From a virus (lineage: Duplodnaviria; Caudoviricetes): a stretch of DNA of 64,000 nucleotides. The DNA lies in the IMG/VR virus record IMGVR_UViG_3300025016_000004; one strand, written 5' to 3'. Shown here one piece after another: positions 55,229-64,000 of the stretch (positions are counted from its first letter, which is position 1; each line of letters opens with the position of its first letter). The notes beneath the pieces are model-generated. The model ran no database searches. It was not told the origin of the DNA and was given only the letters and a program-made list of their open reading frames with translations. A program made the position numbers and the translations under genes.

Positions 55229-57679
55229 ATGAGTGACATCAACAAGCAAGATGGTTTTGGATTTTTAGGAATTCCTTACCAAAGAAGACTTATAACCCAA
55301 TTAATCACAGACCATAAATTTGCTACAAATATAATGGGGATAGTAGACCCAAACTACTTCACAGATTTATATTTGAGAATTATAGCATCTGAAATAAAAA
55401 ATGCGTTTGAGACTGATGAAGTTATACCAGATATTGAAAGCTTAGAATTTAGGTTAAATGGTAGAAAAGATAATGAAACTACTAAACTATATATCAAAGC
55501 ATCAATAGCTGAAATTAAAGATGGTAACCTGAACGATTCAGAATATGTTCAGGATATGGCCATGAAATTTTGTAAACAACAAGAATTAAAGAAATCAGTT
55601 CATGAAATTCAAGAAATAATAGATAAAGGTGATTTAGATTCATATGATGAATGTGAAGAAATATTAAAAAGAGCGTTAGAAGTCGGAAGTGATAAAGATT
55701 CTGGAATTGATGTTTTTTTTAATATTGAGGCAGTTCTAGAGGATGATTTTAGAAAACCAATACCTACAGGTATTGCTGGTTTAGATGATAAAATGGGTGG
55801 TGGTTTATCAAAAGGTGAATTGGGTGTTATATTAGCACCGTTTGGTGTTGGTAAAGCACAACCATTACATTCTAAAATATTAACACCTAATGGTTGGACT
55901 ACTATGGGTGAGATACAAGTTGGTGATGAAGTTATAAGTAGGGATGGTAAAGCGACTAAAGTCACTGGAGTGTTTCCACAAGGCGTTAGACCAATTTATG
56001 AGGTTAGATTTAATGATAATACTAAAACTTTATGTGATGCTGAACATTTATGGTCAGTTAATACAATCAATCAACGAAATAGAAAAACTAAAAAAAATGG
56101 TGTGATGGTTAAATTAGAACCTGATAATTCATTTAAAACTTTAAAAACTATTGATATGGTTGATAAAGTTAGGGTTTGGGGTAATAAGCGTTTAAATTAT
56201 AAAATACCAAATATCTTACCCGTAAATTTTAATAAAAATGAATTAATTATTAACCCATATTTATTAGGTGTTATATTAGGTGATGGATGTATAACTGAAC
56301 ATAATCAACCCCATATTACAACTAAAGATGTTGAATTAATAGATGAAATTGAAAAATATCATAATAATATTAATATTACTGAGCAAACACGAATGTTTGA
56401 AGTTTACAAAAATGGGAAATTTGAAAATGTAGAAAGAACCTTAACAAAAATTTCTTTATTAGGTATTAAAGATGATTTAAGTAGTTTAAAATTATATGGT
56501 TGTAATTCAGAAACTAAATTTATCCCACATAACTATCTATATTCTTCAGTTGAAGATAGAGTTTCGTTATTACAAGGATTAGTAGATACTGATGGTTATA
56601 TTGGTAACAATAGAATTGAGATTTGTACCGTATCAAAAATGATGTCGGAACAAATCAAAGAATTAGTATTGTCATTAGGTGGTACTTGTAATATAGGTGT
56701 AAAAATTGGTAGTTATTTGAAAGAGGGGGTTAAAATTAGATGTAAAAAAGCATATCGAGTTTATTTTAGTTTACCAACACAAATAAAATTTAATCCATGT
56801 AGACTTGAAAGGAAGTTGAATAATTTAAGTAAAAGGTCTAAATATGCTAATAATAAATTTATTACTAGTATTGAATATTCACATGAGGAAGAAGCTCAAT
56901 GTATTATGGTTGATAATCCAGAACATTTATATATAACTGATGATTATATAGTAACACATAACACAACCATGGTCACCAAAATAGCCAACGAAGCTTTTAA
57001 TCATGGATATAATGTTCTTCAAATATTTTTTGAAGATATTCCTAAAGTGATTCAAAGAAAACATTTATCATGTTGGACTGGGATAGCTCAAAACGATTTA
57101 CCATTAAAAGCAAACAGACCCATCATTGATGAAGTCATGAAAGAAAAAAATGATGGTAAAGGGTATTTAGAATTGAAAAAATTTCCTAGTGATGGAACAA
57201 CAATTCCTATGATTAAAAATTATATTAGAAAACTAGCAGCCGCTGGTAGAAAACCTGATGTAATTTTAATTGATTACATTGATTGTGTATCATCAACCAA
57301 ACATTACGATAAGGGATATGAGGCTGAAGGGCCAATTATGAGACAATTCGAATCATTATTGAGCGAATTTGATTTGGTTGGATGGACTGCAATTCAAGGT
57401 AATCGATGTGTTTCATTAGATACTATTATTGAAGATTCTAAACGTGGTAAAATTGAAATTAGAGATGTTAAGTTAGGGGATGAAATTTTAACTCATAAGG
57501 GTTACAAAAAAGTTACCCATATATTTCCTATTGCTAAGCAACCAGTTTATAAAATAAAATTAAAATCTGGTAAAACCATTAAAGTATCTAAAAAACATAA
57601 GTTCCCAACAAAAGATGGTGAAATGTTATCAATTGAAGATGGTTTAAAAGTTGGAAACATACTTTTAGGTAAAAAATAA
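55229..57679 (+). CDS. dnaB: DnaB/gp41-like replicative helicase, N-terminal half (contiguous intein plus split-intein IntN)
   Basis: PTG...LD....GG...GELGVILAP.GVGK|T Walker A, LIDYID Walker B; ends QGNR|C-IntN-stop. Confidence 0.93.
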   Translation: MSDINKQDGFGFLGIPYQRRLITQLITDHKFATNIMGIVDPNYFTDLYLRIIASEIKNAFETDEVIPDIESLEFRLNGRKDNETTKLYIKASIAEIKDGNLNDSEYVQDMAMKFCKQQELKKSVHEIQEIIDKGDLDSYDECEEILKRALEVGSDKDSGIDVFFNIEAVLEDDFRKPIPTGIAGLDDKMGGGLSKGELGVILAPFGVGKAQPLHSKILTPNGWTTMGEIQVGDEVISRDGKATKVTGVFPQGVRPIYEVRFNDNTKTLCDAEHLWSVNTINQRNRKTKKNGVMVKLEPDNSFKTLKTIDMVDKVRVWGNKRLNYKIPNILPVNFNKNELIINPYLLGVILGDGCITEHNQPHITTKDVELIDEIEKYHNNINITEQTRMFEVYKNGKFENVERTLTKISLLGIKDDLSSLKLYGCNSETKFIPHNYLYSSVEDRVSLLQGLVDTDGYIGNNRIEICTVSKMMSEQIKELVLSLGGTCNIGVKIGSYLKEGVKIRCKKAYRVYFSLPTQIKFNPCRLERKLNNLSKRSKYANNKFITSIEYSHEEEAQCIMVDNPEHLYITDDYIVTHNTTMVTKIANEAFNHGYNVLQIFFEDIPKVIQRKHLSCWTGIAQNDLPLKANRPIIDEVMKEKNDGKGYLELKKFPSDGTTIPMIKNYIRKLAAAGRKPDVILIDYIDCVSSTKHYDKGYEAEGPIMRQFESLLSEFDLVGWTAIQGNRCVSLDTIIEDSKRGKIEIRDVKLGDEILTHKGYKKVTHIFPIAKQPVYKIKLKSGKTIKVSKKHKFPTKDGEMLSIEDGLKVGNILLGKK
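55856..56962 (+). mobile_element. Class 3-type intein (Ala1, WCT triplet) with LAGLIDADG endonuclease in the helicase P-loop (369 aa)
   Basis: GK|AQPLHSKILTPNGW...DAEHLW...EAQCIMV...IVTHN|T; LGVILGDG and LQGLVDTDG motifs. Confidence 0.9.
57407..57676 (+). mobile_element. Split intein N-fragment of dnaB (90 aa)
   Basis: CVSLDTII...IEIRDVKLGDEI...VSKKHKFPT; blocks A and B only, then a stop. Confidence 0.92.
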
Positions 57680-57746
57680 TAATAATCTTTTTTGTATTGC
57701 ACTTAAACTTTTACATTATCGGTGATATTTATATTAAAATATTATC

Positions 57747-58889
57747 ATGATTAAAATTGACGTAGAAAATGTAATTAATAGAAAAACCATAAAACCCCTT
57801 TATCTAAAAGGGGTTTTAACTCAAAGACATAAAAATGAAATAAATAATATTTGTGATGTATATAATAGTGTTACTATAAAAAATAGAATTAAAAATATAC
57901 ACGATTTTATAAAATATGATGTTGACGGTACAATCCCTTGGGTTAAAAGGTTGGAAATTATACAGAAAGAATTGAATAATGATATTGCTAGTAAGTATGC
58001 CTTAGAAATAAGATATGGTAAGTGTAATGTAGATAAAAAGAGGTTTGAATTGGGGGTTAAGTTTTCTCATACTTTGGAAAAGTATATTGAAAAATATGGT
58101 AAAATAATCGGTAATGAAAAGTATGATGAATATTTAAGAAAATCTAAAACACCTTGGGGTTTAAAAGGTTGTGTGGATAGATATGGTGAAATAGAAGGTA
58201 AAAAAAAATGGGTGGAAAGGTTAAATAAAAAAATAAACACTCAAAATGAAAGAAAAAAAATAAAACCATATAGGAATGGTAGGACATTGAATGAATATCA
58301 AAATAAATATGGTGTAAAACTTGGTTACTTTAAGTGGAAAAAAAGAAATGAAAAGCAGAGTTATAGATTCTCAAAAAAATATTATATAAATACTTATGGT
58401 AGTGAAAAAGGTAATATTAAATGGGTTGAGTATAAAAAAAGTATGGATAAAACTTCCTTAAAAAGTTTTATCAATAGGTATGGAGAAAAAGATGGGATTA
58501 ATAAATATGAATCTTATTTAAGTAAAATTAATGATAGTGGTGTTTTTTATAGTAAAAGTTCACAAAAGTTATTTTGGTTAATTTATAATCAATTAAGTGA
58601 CGATAAGAAAAAACTTTGTCGTTTTGCAAAATTAAATGGTGAAGAATATTTCATAGTAAATAAATTTGGTTTTAACAATATTTTAGTAGATTTTAAATGT
58701 GAGAATAAAATAATCGAATTTGATGGAGATTATTGGCATTTAAATAAAAAACAAATTGAAATTGATAAATTGAGGGATGAGTTTTTAACTTCTAAGGGTT
58801 ATCAGATTTTAAGGGTTAGAGATAGTGAATTTGAGGTTAATAAAGAAAAAGTAATTAAAGAATGTATAAAATTTATAAAAAATGAATAA
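57747..58889 (+). CDS. Free-standing Vsr/DUF559-like endonuclease between the dnaB halves
   Basis: At least five KYGxxxGxxK(W/Y) repeats; C-terminal VDF...KIIEFDGDYWH...D..RD..L..KGY.ILRV. Confidence 0.8.
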   Translation: MIKIDVENVINRKTIKPLYLKGVLTQRHKNEINNICDVYNSVTIKNRIKNIHDFIKYDVDGTIPWVKRLEIIQKELNNDIASKYALEIRYGKCNVDKKRFELGVKFSHTLEKYIEKYGKIIGNEKYDEYLRKSKTPWGLKGCVDRYGEIEGKKKWVERLNKKINTQNERKKIKPYRNGRTLNEYQNKYGVKLGYFKWKKRNEKQSYRFSKKYYINTYGSEKGNIKWVEYKKSMDKTSLKSFINRYGEKDGINKYESYLSKINDSGVFYSKSSQKLFWLIYNQLSDDKKKLCRFAKLNGEEYFIVNKFGFNNILVDFKCENKIIEFDGDYWHLNKKQIEIDKLRDEFLTSKGYQILRVRDSEFEVNKEKVIKECIKFIKNE

Positions 58890-59397
58890 AAATGAAATTA
58901 TGAATCTAGAGGGGTTTACTTTAGATGAAATAGAGAGTATTGACTTAATAGGTGAAGAAGATACCATAGATATAACTGTGGATGATACCCATATGTTTTT
59001 CGCTAATGATATATATACACATAATTCATCGATTAATGCTGAAAATGTTGATTCAAGTATGATTGGTGGGTCAATCAAAAAAGGTCAAATTGGGCATTTT
59101 ATTGTTTCAATAGCTAAAGATTTAGACCAAAAAGAGGGTGGTAGAGCTAATATGGCGATATTAAAATCTAGGTTTGGTGTAGATGGAATTATTTTTACTG
59201 ATGTAGTATTTGATAACTCCAAAATACAAATAACTATTGATGAAGGTAAAGTATTAAAAGCTTCAGAAATGGATGACTATAAGAATGAACAAGTTAAAGG
59301 AAGAATGAAAGATTTGTTCGAACAATATGAAAAAACTAAAGAAGTTTTAATCACTTCTGAAGTTGATAAAAAAGAAAAAACAGAGGATGTTAACTAA
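58882..59397 (+). CDS. dnaB: DnaB helicase C-terminal half preceded by split-intein IntC (48 aa, 58882-59025)
   Basis: ...EDTIDITVDDTHMFFANDIYTHN|SSINAE...GGSIKKGQIGHFIVSI...ILKSRFG (helicase motifs H3/H4 and the arginine finger). Confidence 0.92.
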   Translation: MNKNEIMNLEGFTLDEIESIDLIGEEDTIDITVDDTHMFFANDIYTHNSSINAENVDSSMIGGSIKKGQIGHFIVSIAKDLDQKEGGRANMAILKSRFGVDGIIFTDVVFDNSKIQITIDEGKVLKASEMDDYKNEQVKGRMKDLFEQYEKTKEVLITSEVDKKEKTEDVN

Positions 59398-62300
59398 AAA
59401 AGAAAAAAGAGTTAAATATTTTAGCGGTGATGATTTAGCCGCAACGGTTTGGAATGATAAATACAAACTAGGGGATGAAGGTTCGGAAATTGAAGAATCT
59501 ACGCCAGCTGATATGCACTTAAGAATGGCAAAAGAATTTGCTAGAGTTGATGGTAAATATCAAGTAAAAGAATTAAAAAAATTATTGGATAATCCAGAAA
59601 TTAAACTTAGTGATTATGGATTTAATCGTAAAGATTTAACAGTTAAAGAAATATACGCTTTATTGGAGAATTTTGGTAAAATAGTTCCACAAGGTTCTGT
59701 TATGTCACAGTTAGGTAATGACGAACAAATTGGTTCATTATCTAATTGTTTTGTTATAGGACAACCTGAAGATTCTTATGGTGGAATTATGCTTAAAGAC
59801 CAAGAATTGGTTCAATTGATGAAACGTAGAGGTGGTGTAGGTATCGATATATCGTCATTAAGACCTAGTGAAACTCCAACATCAAATGCGGCCAAGAGTT
59901 CAACTGGTGCAGTTTCTTTTATGGAAAGATTTAGTAACTCAACTAGAGAAGTTGCTCAAAATGGTCGTAGAGGTGCACTTATGCTTTCAATTGATGTAAG
60001 ACATCCAGATGTAGCTGATTTCGTTAAGATTAAGAATGATAGAACCAAAGTTACTGGTGCTAACATATCAGTTTCATTAAGAGATGATTTCATGAAAGCG
60101 GTTAAAGCTGATGGGGATTATATTTTAAGATATCCAATTAATGAAGAAATACACCCTGAATGGGATGGATTGAATGAATATGAATATAATAAATTATATA
60201 CGCTAGAAGATGCTAATAACGTTAAAACTTGGGTTAAAAAAATTAAAGCTAAAGAATTATATGACCTTATAATTGAGAATGCTTGGGACAACGCTGAACC
60301 TGGTCAGATTTTCATTGATAGACACTGGGATTATAGCCCTGATGGTGTTTATCCAGAATATAGAGGTATAACTACAAACCCTTCATTGCGTCATGATACA
60401 TTAATACAAACTGATTTAGGGTTATACCCTATAAAGGAATTAGCTGAAAGTGATGGGTTAACAATCGTTAAAAATATTAAAAATGAATGGCAAGTTGGTA
60501 AAGTGTTTTTATCTGGTAAAGGTAAAGAATTGTATAAAATTACTTTTACTAATGGATATGAAGTATATTGCACTGCTGAGCATAAATGGCCGATATTGAA
60601 TTCACAGAAAAATATTTTTAATAAAGTGAATGGTTCGGTTTTGAAAAAAAGGACTGATGAGTTAATGTTTGGACACCCAAAACTTGGTGGTGATAGAACA
60701 CATTTAGAGTTTAACCCTAATTATGAGGGTAATGTGAGTTGTAAATTAACAAAAAATGATGGATTTTTAAGTGGTTATTGGTTAGGTGATGGACACACTT
60801 CGATAACAACTGAGGGAGTTAAACAATACGGATTTATAGTATCTGATGATGAATTATTAGATTGTGGCGATAAATTACTTAATATAATCGGTGAAAATAA
60901 AATAAAAAACACTAACAATAATTTTAATAGAGACCATGAAAGTGAAGCATACTCACTATATATTAGCGAGATTGGATTCAGAGAGTATTGTGATAGATTA
61001 AAATTAGGGTATGATAAAATTAATGGGATACCCGAAACAGTTTTCAAAAGTGGTAATAAATTTATAAAAGGGTTTATAGATGGATTGTTTTCTGCTGATG
61101 GCTCTGTGTGGGCTAATGAAGATTTAGTACATAGTAGAGTTACATTAACAAGTAGTAGATTTAACATAGTAAAAGACGTTCAAAAATTATTAAATTTATT
61201 TGGAATTTCTAGTAATATACAAGAGCGTAAAGATAAGTTAAATGATAAAACGTTTACTGGGTATAATTTAGTTATTAGTGGGGTACACAGTAGGAAATTT
61301 GCAACGTGTTTTACTTTAACTTCTAAAGATAAACAAGATAAATTAGATACTATATTAAATTATGAAAACACATATAAAGATAATAGAGAGTATTTAATTA
61401 TTAAAAATGTTGAACCAACTGGTATTTTTGAGGATGTGTATGATATAACAGTATTTGATGATACACACACTTTTAAAGGAGAGTTTGGTACGACTGGTAA
61501 TTGTGGTGAAATATTTATGCAACCATATGATGCTTGTAGATTAATGGCATTGAATTTTTATTCATTTGTAGATAACCCATTTACTAAAAACGCTAGAGTC
61601 AATTATCAAGCTGTATATGAAGCGGCCTACGAGCAACAAAGATTAGCTGATGATTTAGTTGATTTAGAATTAGAAAAAATTGATAGAATTATCGCTAAGG
61701 TTAAAAATGACCCTGAAAGCGAAATGACAAAAGCTGTTGAATTACAACTTTGGGAAAATATCCGTAAAGTTGCAGCTTCTGGTAGAAGAACTGGATGTGG
61801 TTTTACTGGGTTAGGTGATATGATTGCGGCCACTGGTGTTGATTATGATTCTGAAGAAGGGTTAGATATCATTGATAAGGTTATGAGGGCTAAAATGAGC
61901 GGTGAGTTAGACTGTACTATCGATTTAGCAGCTCTTAGAGGTCATTTCGATGGATATAACAACGAATTAGAGTATTCTGATGGTGTAGGCACCAATGAGT
62001 TCTTTAAGATGCTTAAAACTGAGTTTAAAGAGCAATATGATAGAATGATTATTTATGGAAGAAGAAACGTATCATTCTCAACGGTTGCACCTACAGGTTG
62101 CTTAGTTAAAGAAACTAAACTAAAAACAAATCGAGGTATCATTGAATTGAAAGATTTATTTTTAATTAATGGTATTGATATAGATAAATTAAAAAATGAA
62201 AAAAATATTTGGTTTGATATTGAAGAAGAAATAATGGTTTATGATATTAATGGTGGTGAACATAAAATAAATAAATTATATTGGAATGGTTATAGTAAAA

Positions 62301-62443
62301 CTAAAAAAATTAAATTGGGTAATAATGAAAGTGTTGAATCTAGTACCGAACATAAGTGGTTGGTTAGGGTTTCTGAAACTGAGGCTAAATGGGTTAGAGC
62401 TGACGAATTGAAAATTTCTGATAAAATTATTAAAATAAATTAA
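59363..62443 (+). CDS. nrdJ: Class II (B12-dependent) ribonucleotide reductase, N-terminal half (contiguous intein plus split-intein IntN); start may be ATG 59387
   Basis: SNCFV, RRGGVG.D.S.LRP, RRGALM, TTNP|CGEI, C.L, RR.G.G..G; ends STVAPTG|C-IntN-stop. Confidence 0.92.
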   Translation: MIKKKKQRMLTKKEKRVKYFSGDDLAATVWNDKYKLGDEGSEIEESTPADMHLRMAKEFARVDGKYQVKELKKLLDNPEIKLSDYGFNRKDLTVKEIYALLENFGKIVPQGSVMSQLGNDEQIGSLSNCFVIGQPEDSYGGIMLKDQELVQLMKRRGGVGIDISSLRPSETPTSNAAKSSTGAVSFMERFSNSTREVAQNGRRGALMLSIDVRHPDVADFVKIKNDRTKVTGANISVSLRDDFMKAVKADGDYILRYPINEEIHPEWDGLNEYEYNKLYTLEDANNVKTWVKKIKAKELYDLIIENAWDNAEPGQIFIDRHWDYSPDGVYPEYRGITTNPSLRHDTLIQTDLGLYPIKELAESDGLTIVKNIKNEWQVGKVFLSGKGKELYKITFTNGYEVYCTAEHKWPILNSQKNIFNKVNGSVLKKRTDELMFGHPKLGGDRTHLEFNPNYEGNVSCKLTKNDGFLSGYWLGDGHTSITTEGVKQYGFIVSDDELLDCGDKLLNIIGENKIKNTNNNFNRDHESEAYSLYISEIGFREYCDRLKLGYDKINGIPETVFKSGNKFIKGFIDGLFSADGSVWANEDLVHSRVTLTSSRFNIVKDVQKLLNLFGISSNIQERKDKLNDKTFTGYNLVISGVHSRKFATCFTLTSKDKQDKLDTILNYENTYKDNREYLIIKNVEPTGIFEDVYDITVFDDTHTFKGEFGTTGNCGEIFMQPYDACRLMALNFYSFVDNPFTKNARVNYQAVYEAAYEQQRLADDLVDLELEKIDRIIAKVKNDPESEMTKAVELQLWENIRKVAASGRRTGCGFTGLGDMIAATGVDYDSEEGLDIIDKVMRAKMSGELDCTIDLAALRGHFDGYNNELEYSDGVGTNEFFKMLKTEFKEQYDRMIIYGRRNVSFSTVAPTGCLVKETKLKTNRGIIELKDLFLINGIDIDKLKNEKNIWFDIEEEIMVYDINGGEHKINKLYWNGYSKTKKIKLGNNESVESSTEHKWLVRVSETEAKWVRADELKISDKIIKIN
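60383..61501 (+). mobile_element. Intein with LAGLIDADG endonuclease directly before the RNR catalytic Cys (373 aa)
   Basis: TTNP|SLRHDTLIQ...CTAEHKW...VYDITVFDDTHTFKGEFGTTGN|CGEI; GYWLGDG and IDGLFSADG motifs. Confidence 0.92.
62099..62440 (+). mobile_element. Split intein N-fragment of nrdJ (114 aa)
   Basis: CLVKETKLKTNRG...ESSTEHKWLV...WVRADELKISDKI, then a stop; no block F or G. Confidence 0.9.
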
Positions 62444-62447
62444 CTAA

Positions 62448-62483
62448 AACGCCCTTTGTTTTATACTTATTACAAAGGGCGTT
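62448..62483 (+). promoter_or_regulatory. Strong hairpin abutting the endonuclease start codon
   Basis: aacgccctttgt / acaaagggcgtt perfect 12-bp stem with a 12-nt loop; no T-tail; ATG at 62488. Confidence 0.7.
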
Positions 62484-62487
62484 AGTT

Positions 62488-63600
62488 ATGAAAATAAAAT
62501 ATGTAGAATATTATAATGAATTGGTTAGTAAATATGGTGAAGAAGATGGGTTAAAAAAATATAAATCATTTTTGAGGTCATCAACATTAGAAACTTATAT
62601 TATTAAATTTGGTGAAAAGCGTGGTACAGATAAATTCAATAATAAGAAAAAGTCAGGAATATCACTAGAAAAAATGATTGAGAAATATGGTGAAAAAGAC
62701 GGTACTAATAGATATAATAATTGGTTATCTAAAATTAGGCAAGATTTACCAAATTTTATTAAGAGATATGGTGAAAAAGACGGATTAAAAAAATATAATG
62801 AATTTAAAGATAATTGTATTGTTAAAACAAAAATAAAAGAAAACCCCAACTCAAAATATAATAATAGGTTACATAATACTAGATATGAATTTTTTTTAGA
62901 AGAAAATAATGGTGATATTAATAAAGCTAAAAAACAATTAATTAAAAGACAAAGAACGAGTGATTTAAAATCTTTCATTAAAAAACACGGCTTAATAGAG
63001 GGTGAAAAAAAATATAAATTAGCTAATAAAAAAAAATCTAATAATATTAAGAATTTTATTAGATTATATGGTGATGTTGAAGGTAATAGACGATATTTTA
63101 ATTATATTAAAAAACTAAAATATATTCATAGTGAAAAATATTATTTAGATAAGTATGGTGAAATAGAAGGTAAAGTTAGGTGGGTAGAATTGATTAATAA
63201 AAAAACTAATAATTTTATTAATGGTCAATCTAAAATTGGTGATGAATTTTGTAATAATTTATTTAATGAAATAAAAAAAGATGTTGATGATAAATATTAT
63301 TTTTCTGAAAATGAATATAAATTCTTTATTCATGATGAAGAATATAAAATAATTCAGCCAGATTTTTTAATTAAAGAAAGTAAAATAGTTGTTGAATTTT
63401 ATGGTGATTACTGGCATAGAAATCCAGAAATATATAATGATGATATTTCAAAAATAATTAGGGAAAAAGATGAAGAAAGGATAAAAAAAATAGAATCTTT
63501 AGGGTATATCATATATATTATATGGGAAAAGGAATATCGTTTAAATAAAATTGGAGTAATAAAAAATTTAAGTAATAAAATAATTAATAAAATAAAATAA
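62488..63600 (+). CDS. Free-standing Vsr/DUF559-like endonuclease between the nrdJ halves
   Basis: About seven (K/R)YGExxGxx(K/R)Y repeats; C-terminal QPDF...KIVVEFYGDYWH...D.ER...IESLGY.IYIIWE. Confidence 0.8.
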   Translation: MKIKYVEYYNELVSKYGEEDGLKKYKSFLRSSTLETYIIKFGEKRGTDKFNNKKKSGISLEKMIEKYGEKDGTNRYNNWLSKIRQDLPNFIKRYGEKDGLKKYNEFKDNCIVKTKIKENPNSKYNNRLHNTRYEFFLEENNGDINKAKKQLIKRQRTSDLKSFIKKHGLIEGEKKYKLANKKKSNNIKNFIRLYGDVEGNRRYFNYIKKLKYIHSEKYYLDKYGEIEGKVRWVELINKKTNNFINGQSKIGDEFCNNLFNEIKKDVDDKYYFSENEYKFFIHDEEYKIIQPDFLIKESKIVVEFYGDYWHRNPEIYNDDISKIIREKDEERIKKIESLGYIIYIIWEKEYRLNKIGVIKNLSNKIINKIK

Positions 63601-64000
63601 TGAAGGAAAATAACGAAATAATTGATATTAGTAATGTTAATTACAGTGAATGTGAAATATTAGATATTGTAGATGGATATGATTATACTATGGATTTTGA
63701 GGTGGGTGATACACATTACTATACATTAGAAAATGGTTTAGTGAGTCATAATAGTGTGAGTATTCTTACTCAAACTACTTCGGGGTTAGAGCCAGTATTT
63801 TCCGTATTCCCTTATTTAAGACGTAAAAAGTTAAACCCTAACGATAAAAACGCTAGAGTAGATTTTACTGATGATAATGGTGACCAATGGCAAGAGTTTT
63901 CAGTAACTCATAAACCGCTTATGGATTATATCAAAATCAATAAATTGGATGAAGCAATCACTGAATTAAATGATAAAATGAATAAAACCAAAGCTGAAGA
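63600..64000 (+). CDS. nrdJ: NrdJ C-terminal half preceded by split-intein IntC (51 aa, 63600-63752); partial and not in the ORF track
   Basis: My translation is MKENNEIIDISNVNYSECEILDIVDGYDYTMDFEVGDTHYYTLENGLVSHN|SVSILTQTTSGLEPVF...; splicing restores APTG-SVS..TTSGLEPVF. Confidence 0.92.
   Translation, partial: MKENNEIIDISNVNYSECEILDIVDGYDYTMDFEVGDTHYYTLENGLVSHNSVSILTQTTSGLEPVFSVFPYLRRKKLNPNDKNARVDFTDDNGDQWQEFSVTHKPLMDYIKINKLDEAITELNDKMNKTKAE

Follow-up and report, generated by a model that had tools for sequence, protein, structure and literature searches.

A putative naturally split intein in the APTG-S loop of a fractured class II ribonucleotide reductase gene of a Caudoviricetes virus

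Introduction

Can a ribonucleotide reductase (RNR) gene that is divided within a conserved loop still give rise to one continuous enzyme? This question is raised by the nrdJ locus of a Caudoviricetes virus (Duplodnaviria; IMG/VR virus record IMGVR_UViG_3300025016_000004), of which we analyzed a stretch of 64,000 nucleotides (hereafter the window; coordinates refer to it, and all nrdJ features described lie on the + strand). An initial annotation, made by a model from the sequence alone, had placed a split intein in NrdJ at an APTG|S site and had noted that its C-terminal half was missed among the listed open reading frames (ORFs). We found the locus to be very likely a "fractured" nrdJ gene with a naturally split class 1 intein at APTG|S, from which the enzyme would be restored by trans-splicing. 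The argument is built on the anatomy of the locus, a junction that can be placed exactly, the conservation of catalytic residues and the recurrence of the arrangement in diverged phages.

Results

The nrdJ gene is divided at an exactly defined junction

The N-terminal half of nrdJ is contained in an ORF that runs to position 62443 and codes for the first three quarters of a class II (B12-type) RNR (PF02867, TIGR02504 NrdJ_Z). The second part of its N-extein (61502–62098) ends in ...YGRRNVSFSTVAPTG, and the C-terminal stretch of the protein reads ...STVAPTG|CLVKET...KIIKIN, where the bar marks the beginning of the N-terminal intein half (IntN, 114 aa, 62099–62440), followed by TAA at 62441–62443. 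A spacer of 44 bases separates this stop from the ATG of a free-standing, putative homing endonuclease gene of 370 aa (62488–63600), and the final base of the endonuclease TAA is also the first base of an ATG at 63600 (TAATG). The frame opened by this ATG reads MKENN...GLVSHN|SVSILTQTTSGLEPVF... and consists of the C-terminal intein half (IntC, 51 aa, 63600–63752) and the C-extein, which opens at the +1 Ser and extends from 63753 to 64000 and beyond the window end. Because the frame is 3'-open, it is absent from the default ORF listing and appears only when open ends are allowed, which bears out the omission noted in the initial annotation. The intein halves thus sit on separate ORFs of the same strand with a free-standing endonuclease gene in between, which is the arrangement of a fractured gene.

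The 63600 frame was expected to continue into an RNR C-terminus, and this proved to be the case. Exact copies of the N-half protein are found on many public contigs, the longest of 315 kb; one of these, L002, is a longer copy of the same contig and takes the C-half to 326 aa, including the C-terminal motifs of NrdJ, with the C-extein carried on for 275 aa. The TIGR02504 NrdJ_Z match on the C-half begins at residue 52, which is the +1 Ser directly after SHN, and covers profile positions 459–604; the L002 C-half also matches residues 572–640 of Thermotoga maritima NrdJ (1XJE). The position of the break was determined by comparison with an intein-free NrdJ (L012) of the 635-kb uncultured phage LR745206.1, which reads ...YGRRNIALLTIAPTGSVSILTQTSSGIEPVF... 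with the loop APTG-SVSILTQT unbroken. The second part of the window N-extein shares 44% identity with L012 residues 333–530 and its alignment stops exactly at G530, while the C-extein aligns from S531, so that the insertion point can be assigned to a single residue boundary. Removal of the element would restore an uninterrupted conserved host sequence, as expected of an intein. Transferred to 1XJE chain A (sequence numbering), the insertion falls between G492 and S493, and we take the APTG-S loop to correspond to P621–S625 of E. coli NrdA, which presumably binds substrate phosphate.

The same arrangement was found elsewhere. An unannotated 462-kb GenBank phage, LR756500.1 (L001), carries matching three genes, with 48% identity across IntN and a short stretch of adjoining N-extein, and 47% for the C-half. 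A scan of IMG/VR with an IntN alignment yielded nine loci, seven of which (L003–L009) show the three-gene arrangement, one of them being the same phage as LR756500.1. IntN identity of LR756500.1 and L003–L009 ranges from 38 to 54%. An alignment query was required: the IMG/VR scan with the single IntN sequence gave no matches, and a word-indexed search for homologues of the IntN region retrieved no protein besides that of the window itself. Since eight diverged loci share these junctions, they cannot be attributed to chance. One of the IMG/VR loci (L003, 1912–6387) has an N-half frame of 1492 residues and probably carries more than one extra contiguous intein upstream of IntN.

The two halves have the residues and predicted fold of a class 1 intein

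Cys1 directly follows APTG in the window, is invariant in eight loci of the family, this one and seven others, and opens the intein in almost every full-length sequence among the best 150 matches to an IntN profile (see below). Block B (S-x-x-H) reads S-T-E-H here; its His is invariant, and a Ser or Thr stands three residues before it in all eight loci. The initial annotation had also recognized blocks F and G in the 63600 frame, and indeed IntC ends TMDFEVGDTHYY...GLVSHN|S with the D...H of block F and the SHN of block G. The block F Asp and SHN followed by Ser or Thr are invariant in the eight loci, and the block F His is present in most. Judged from sequence, the nucleophile, block B, blocks F and G and the +1 residue are those of a class 1 intein. 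IntN also contains an insert of about 20 aa (roughly NGIDIDKLKNEKNIWFD), which had been pointed out as a feature of this copy; the insert is present, but it is conserved across the whole family, and forms a helix plus a strand in the model of a close relative. It thus characterizes the family as a whole rather than this copy.

Profile searches with both halves, which the initial annotation had proposed as a check, led to solved inteins. Besides two O-methyltransferase entries, the IntN profile matched Mxe GyrA, Ssp DnaB, gp41-1 and Npu DnaE in the Protein Data Bank (PDB), and the IntC profile matched Npu DnaE IntC and gp41-1. A phmmer search of the PDB with IntN gave PrgB as its sole match, which we judged spurious. 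A natural contiguous relative (P0088:242–404) was modelled from an alignment of 12 contiguous relatives at a predicted local distance difference test score (pLDDT) of 93.5, and the single low-confidence loop of the model coincides with the split position of the window intein. All of the top 50 Foldseek matches to this model (50/50) have the HINT fold, comprising inteins plus two Hedgehog autoprocessing domains, with Mxe GyrA as the best match (TM 0.79). Predicted as a complex, IntN and IntC scored 0.75, against 0.00 for the best of 3 controls; a score of 0.75 was attained by 51 of 78 solved complexes and by 2 of 108 mismatched pairs. Three runs shared at least 95% of contacts, with partner pLDDT of at least 74. 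As split-intein complexes have already been solved, this result may reflect likeness to them. The prediction supports the association of IntN and IntC into a HINT fold, and the pair very probably carries out ordinary protein trans-splicing.

Several observations weigh against this reading. The profile matches to solved inteins are weak (E 0.009–0.1), and Pfam Intein_splicing detects neither IntN nor IntC, only the contiguous intein of nrdJ, so that the case rests on the motifs, the exact junction, the structure model of the relative and the complex model. The contig copies found stop short of the nrdJ stop codon, the last ~70 residues being represented by homologues only. Charge is a further point. 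IntN is near neutral, as originally described, with a net charge of +1, and IntC is at -11; in the complex model, an IntN strand rich in Lys faces an acidic one of IntC. Relatives can have two net negative halves, so global charge complementarity is not a family trait, and the electrostatic steering described for other split inteins is not evident family-wide. In L005 (6043–6393 and 7617–7763) the halves are at -7 and -8, and in L010, an endonuclease-less locus described below, IntN is at -14 and IntC is neutral, values that do not fit a pairing by simple charge complementarity.

A putative homing endonuclease gene and a hairpin occupy the break

The 370-aa ORF between the halves consists of N-terminal KYG-type repeats and a C-terminal domain whose best matches are the Vsr family and I-Bth0305I (PDB 3R3P, 1VSR). 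These matches are weak but specific: the ORF scores below curated cut-offs (PF18741, 20.6 bits vs 38.2; TIGR00632, 21.8 vs 97.85) and matches 3R3P at E 0.0096, in addition to a match to phrog_22677. It shares 41% identity with the gene at the same place in LR756500.1, and 30% with a paralogue in the neighboring helicase (gp41) locus (57747–58889), which passes PF18741 and DUF559. A "Vsr-like" homing endonuclease family was predicted from fractured genes by Dassa et al. (PMC2677866), who also described a hairpin at the endonuclease start and proposed a role in regulating translation. The window has this hairpin as well: 48 bases (62441–62488) fold with a dG of -23.2 kcal/mol (z -7.6), and the GGAG-like, Shine-Dalgarno-like region is base-paired as far as the endonuclease ATG. 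L003–L009 have counterparts of this hairpin whose stems differ in sequence, and none was found in the endonuclease-less L010.

Taken together, these elements suggest the following scheme. In the barrel of the class II RNR, the conserved APTG|S loop would host a class 1 intein, interrupted, at the loop where endonucleases are usually inserted, by a free-standing Vsr-like homing endonuclease gene. As a result of the interruption, translation would yield the enzyme in two chains, NrdJ-N with IntN and IntC with NrdJ-C. The two intein parts would associate as a HINT fold and trans-splice, with Cys1 performing the N-S acyl shift, the +1 Ser the transesterification, and the terminal Asn cyclizing, so that the loop APTG-SVS is restored. 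The N-half would in addition have to cis-splice a contiguous LAGLIDADG intein at the thiyl-radical loop. The endonuclease, its translation held back by the hairpin over the ribosome-binding site, most likely promotes the spread of the cassette through cleavage of cassette-free nrdJ alleles.

Other explanations of the locus can be weighed against this scheme. The intein halves might serve as a non-covalent dimerization module, giving a two-chain reductase without peptide ligation. Phage Aeh1 NrdA (PMC3045599) offers a published precedent for a fragmented RNR assembled without splicing, and our complex model speaks to the association of the halves and not to their chemistry. However, Cys1, the block B His, the terminal His-Asn and the +1 Ser/Thr are kept across loci that are 30–54% identical in IntN, which is more than a mere docking module would need, and the division falls within a conserved part of the active-site barrel, the APTG-S loop; we therefore regard a docking module as quite unlikely. 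Somewhat less likely still is a decaying pseudogene, broken by endonuclease invasion and with its halves unused. Some phage RNR genes do seem to degenerate under mobile-element load, and the nrdA of Campylobacter phages has been discussed in these terms (PMC3653736), yet both exteins of the window nrdJ are open and full-length with conserved motifs present, and the arrangement is intact in at least eight diverged phage lineages and more than 100 protein clusters, with the intein catalytic residues conserved.

The least probable explanation, one we would hardly credit, is an assembly or sequencing artefact in which a contiguous intein with an internal endonuclease domain was falsely divided. 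Two database proteins (P0021 and P0052) do read from IntN in frame into a KYG-repeat endonuclease. On the other hand, the locus stretch is identical in contigs of 22 DNA runs from aquifer and spring metagenomes, among which the source sample is probably represented, and in the two runs compared in detail a single contig spans it with zero differences. Apparent joints in the DNA runs had sides of 21–42 bases and belonged to other organisms or repeats, and none supported an intein-less or endonuclease-less variant. Moreover, the diverged relatives all have the stop, the intergenic hairpin and a separately started endonuclease ORF. Trans-splicing of a genuinely split intein thus remains the preferred reading of the locus.

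Relatives of IntN are numerous and, among the best matches, mostly split

In order to place the intein among its relatives, the IntN profile was searched against 1.84 billion cluster representatives, which gave matches in 901 clusters at E<=1e-3 and in 254 at E<=1e-10. Among the best 150 matches, 112 end no more than 16 residues after IntN, 18 run well beyond it, 3 have tails of 17–40 residues and 17 are fragments. The motif preceding the intein in the split forms among these 150 is KPxG (n = 51), APTG-like (n = 43), class I-like MPxES/MPTAS (n = 8) or PTGN (n = 5), which places the split forms in the same RNR loop of class II and class I enzymes; aligned without gaps, APTG|S lies one residue upstream of the class I site (MPTAS|T). 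The 18 longer matches comprise 12 contiguous mini-inteins, 4 inteins with LAGLIDADG and the 2 proteins with an in-frame endonuclease. In the latter, IntN reads into the KYG-repeat Vsr-like endonuclease within residues 631–1125 of P0021 and 148–686 of P0052, which could represent an intermediate between free-standing and nested endonucleases or a gene-calling or sequencing artefact.

The remaining two of the nine IMG/VR loci carry a related split intein (KPAG|C...SHN|TTS) in another NrdJ type and without an endonuclease gene. At L010 (6022–7099; the same as L011) the halves are separated by a spacer of 46 bases and IntC is short, with 34 aa; this locus resembles the endonuclease-less gp41-7 locus of Dassa et al. 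(2009). Cultured Campylobacter phages (PC14, NCTC12673 and others) harbor a contiguous relative in NrdA, at APTA|C...SHN|TSG. In phage PC14 (L013, NC_031909.1, 92935–102273) the annotated "NrdA-like large subunit", which carries this contiguous mini-intein, covers only the C-terminal part of the enzyme, beginning directly behind the thiyl-radical loop. It is surrounded by annotated genes for three homing endonucleases (Hef71, Hef73 and an unnamed one).

A poorly resolved tree, built from 113 columns for 131 IntN sequences and leaving 61 of its 128 inner branches without resolution, groups the inteins by RNR type, requiring 11 changes as compared to 56.7 in shuffles. Non-split forms are scattered over the tree (15 changes), and we drew no direction of change from it. 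One reading of these data is a very large undescribed clade of predominantly split inteins that have the conserved P-T-G/S loop of the RNR barrel as their common structural position. Dimeric and KPxG-type class II enzymes would share this position, class I enzymes would have it offset by one residue, and forms that are contiguous, bear LAGLIDADG or are fused to an endonuclease would be interspersed with the split ones. We consider the evidence for such a clade to be evenly balanced.

Further inteins in nrdJ and the neighboring helicase gene

Upstream of the split site, the first part of the nrdJ N-extein (59387–60382; TIGR02504 NrdJ_Z and PF02867 matches) ends ...GITTNP. Public gene calls start it at ATG 59387, and TTG 59363 is the first possible start codon. 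It is followed by a contiguous intein of 373 aa with a LAGLIDADG endonuclease domain (60383–61501; Pfam LAGLIDADG_3, Intein_splicing), which occupies the NPC position of the gene (NP|S...GN|CGEI) just before the thiyl-radical Cys, where the intein-free homologue reads STNPCGEI. This intein has Ser1 and a terminal Gly-Asn without the usual penultimate His, and the thiyl-radical Cys of the NPC motif doubles as its +1 nucleophile.

The neighboring gp41/DnaB-type helicase gene (55229–59397) has the same build as nrdJ. A contiguous LAGLIDADG intein comes first, followed by a basic IntN of 90 aa that ends at 57676 and a stop, a 380-aa Vsr-like endonuclease gene (57747–58889, the paralogue mentioned above) and an acidic IntC of 48 aa (58882–59025) ending THN|SS. 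The net charges of this pair are +10 (IntN) and -12 (IntC). The two split pairs are presumably co-expressed and orthogonal in vivo, that is, without cross-reaction.

In two RNA-library runs from spring and aquifer samples, contigs of 150–210 bases are identical to parts of the helicase gene, the nrdJ N-extein and both endonuclease genes. The stretches in the endonuclease genes and the N-extein are 58052–58217, 59504–59682, 60155–60295 and 62632–62947; IntN and IntC are not covered. RNA libraries can contain DNA, so these contigs are suggestive, but not proof, of in situ expression.

Discussion

The picture of fractured RNR genes drawn in 2009, with two adjacent sites in the thiyl-radical loop, is incomplete. 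The conserved APTG-S loop emerges as a second hotspot, at which split copies far outnumber contiguous ones in public data. Protein engineers look for natural split inteins that combine Ser at +1 with a small residue at -1, and NrdJ-1 is prized for these properties. If the clade outlined above is real, it would constitute a major natural reservoir of split inteins with Ser/Thr(+1) and Gly(-1), some of them lacking charge complementarity, and a good system in which to study how inteins split and re-fuse. Public records label the halves "hypothetical protein" or leave them unannotated, and surveys of RNR genes in viromes will consequently miscount such genes. We see the main value of the locus in new split inteins and in a corrected annotation of phage RNR genes.

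How does the intein relate to those already known from RNR? Split inteins of NrdA are inserted directly N-terminal to the thiyl-radical Cys, and those of NrdJ-1 and NrdJ-2 one residue after it (PMC2677866). The initial annotation had placed NrdJ-1 at the NPC/SEI active-site loop; this agrees with PMC2677866 and with a 2026 preprint that gives NPC/SEI as the native exteins of NrdJ-1 and 8UBS as its structure (bioRxiv 10.64898/2026.03.03.709324). The split site at APTG|S is located ~190 extein residues downstream of NPC|S. The 8UBS structure was not among the PDB matches of either the IntN or the IntC profile at E<=1, and against the model of P0088 it ranked 43rd with 18% identity. Allelic inteins are usually closely similar in sequence, and the APTG|S intein, which departs from NrdJ-1 and NrdJ-2 in both site and similarity, is by these sequence-based measures non-allelic to them.

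Within the open full-text literature, with intein databases (InBase, Pietrokovski) and subscription journals outside the scope of the search, we found no split intein at the APTG|S site of RNR. The site is very likely catalogued in intein databases for contiguous inteins. Lettered RIR1 sites (rir1-b, -g, -k, -l and -m) are named in the literature without sequence context, and the RNR phylogeny papers covered do not mention inteins. The early suggestion of a different, uncharacterised split allele thus stands in that the intein is non-allelic and unpublished in the open literature, but not as a rarity, since the family fills hundreds of clusters. Overall, the layout has been known since 2009, and the insertion site and the intein family appear to be unpublished as split inteins.

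The closest parallels in layout are NrdJ-1 and NrdJ-2 as described by Dassa et al. in 2009 (PMC2677866), which share with the window a phage NrdJ host, the order of extein-IntN, free-standing endonuclease (in the window a putative Vsr-like one) and IntC-extein, a hairpin over the endonuclease start, Cys1 and Ser+1. In contrast to them, the window intein occupies another site and belongs to another sequence family, and its precursor has an additional contiguous intein one residue before the NrdJ-1 site. With the ultrafast NrdJ-1 (8UBS; Ser+1) it has in common the typical split position within HINT, the Cys1/Ser+1 chemistry and similar fragment sizes, whereas the native junction residues are G/S in the window and C/S in NrdJ-1. 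The mini-intein in NrdA of the Campylobacter phages PC14 and NCTC12673 (Fletchervirus) is alike in structural site and family (31% identity to IntN over 113 residues) but is contiguous, has no internal endonuclease gene and resides in a host whose annotation is class I-like NrdA. For the putative nuclease domain at the C-terminus of the window endonuclease, the best matches, weak ones (E about 0.01), lie in the I-Bth0305I/Vsr-like (EDxHD) family (PMC3239194); I-Bth0305I is intron-encoded, while the window gene is free-standing within an intein and has long N-terminal KYG-type repeats. Finally, in phage Aeh1 the mobile endonuclease gene of MobE similarly splits the large RNR subunit NrdA into two parts, both of them translated (PMC3045599). 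Aeh1 NrdA is reported to work as a non-covalent complex and to have no intein, whereas the break in the window nrdJ is flanked by complete intein halves.

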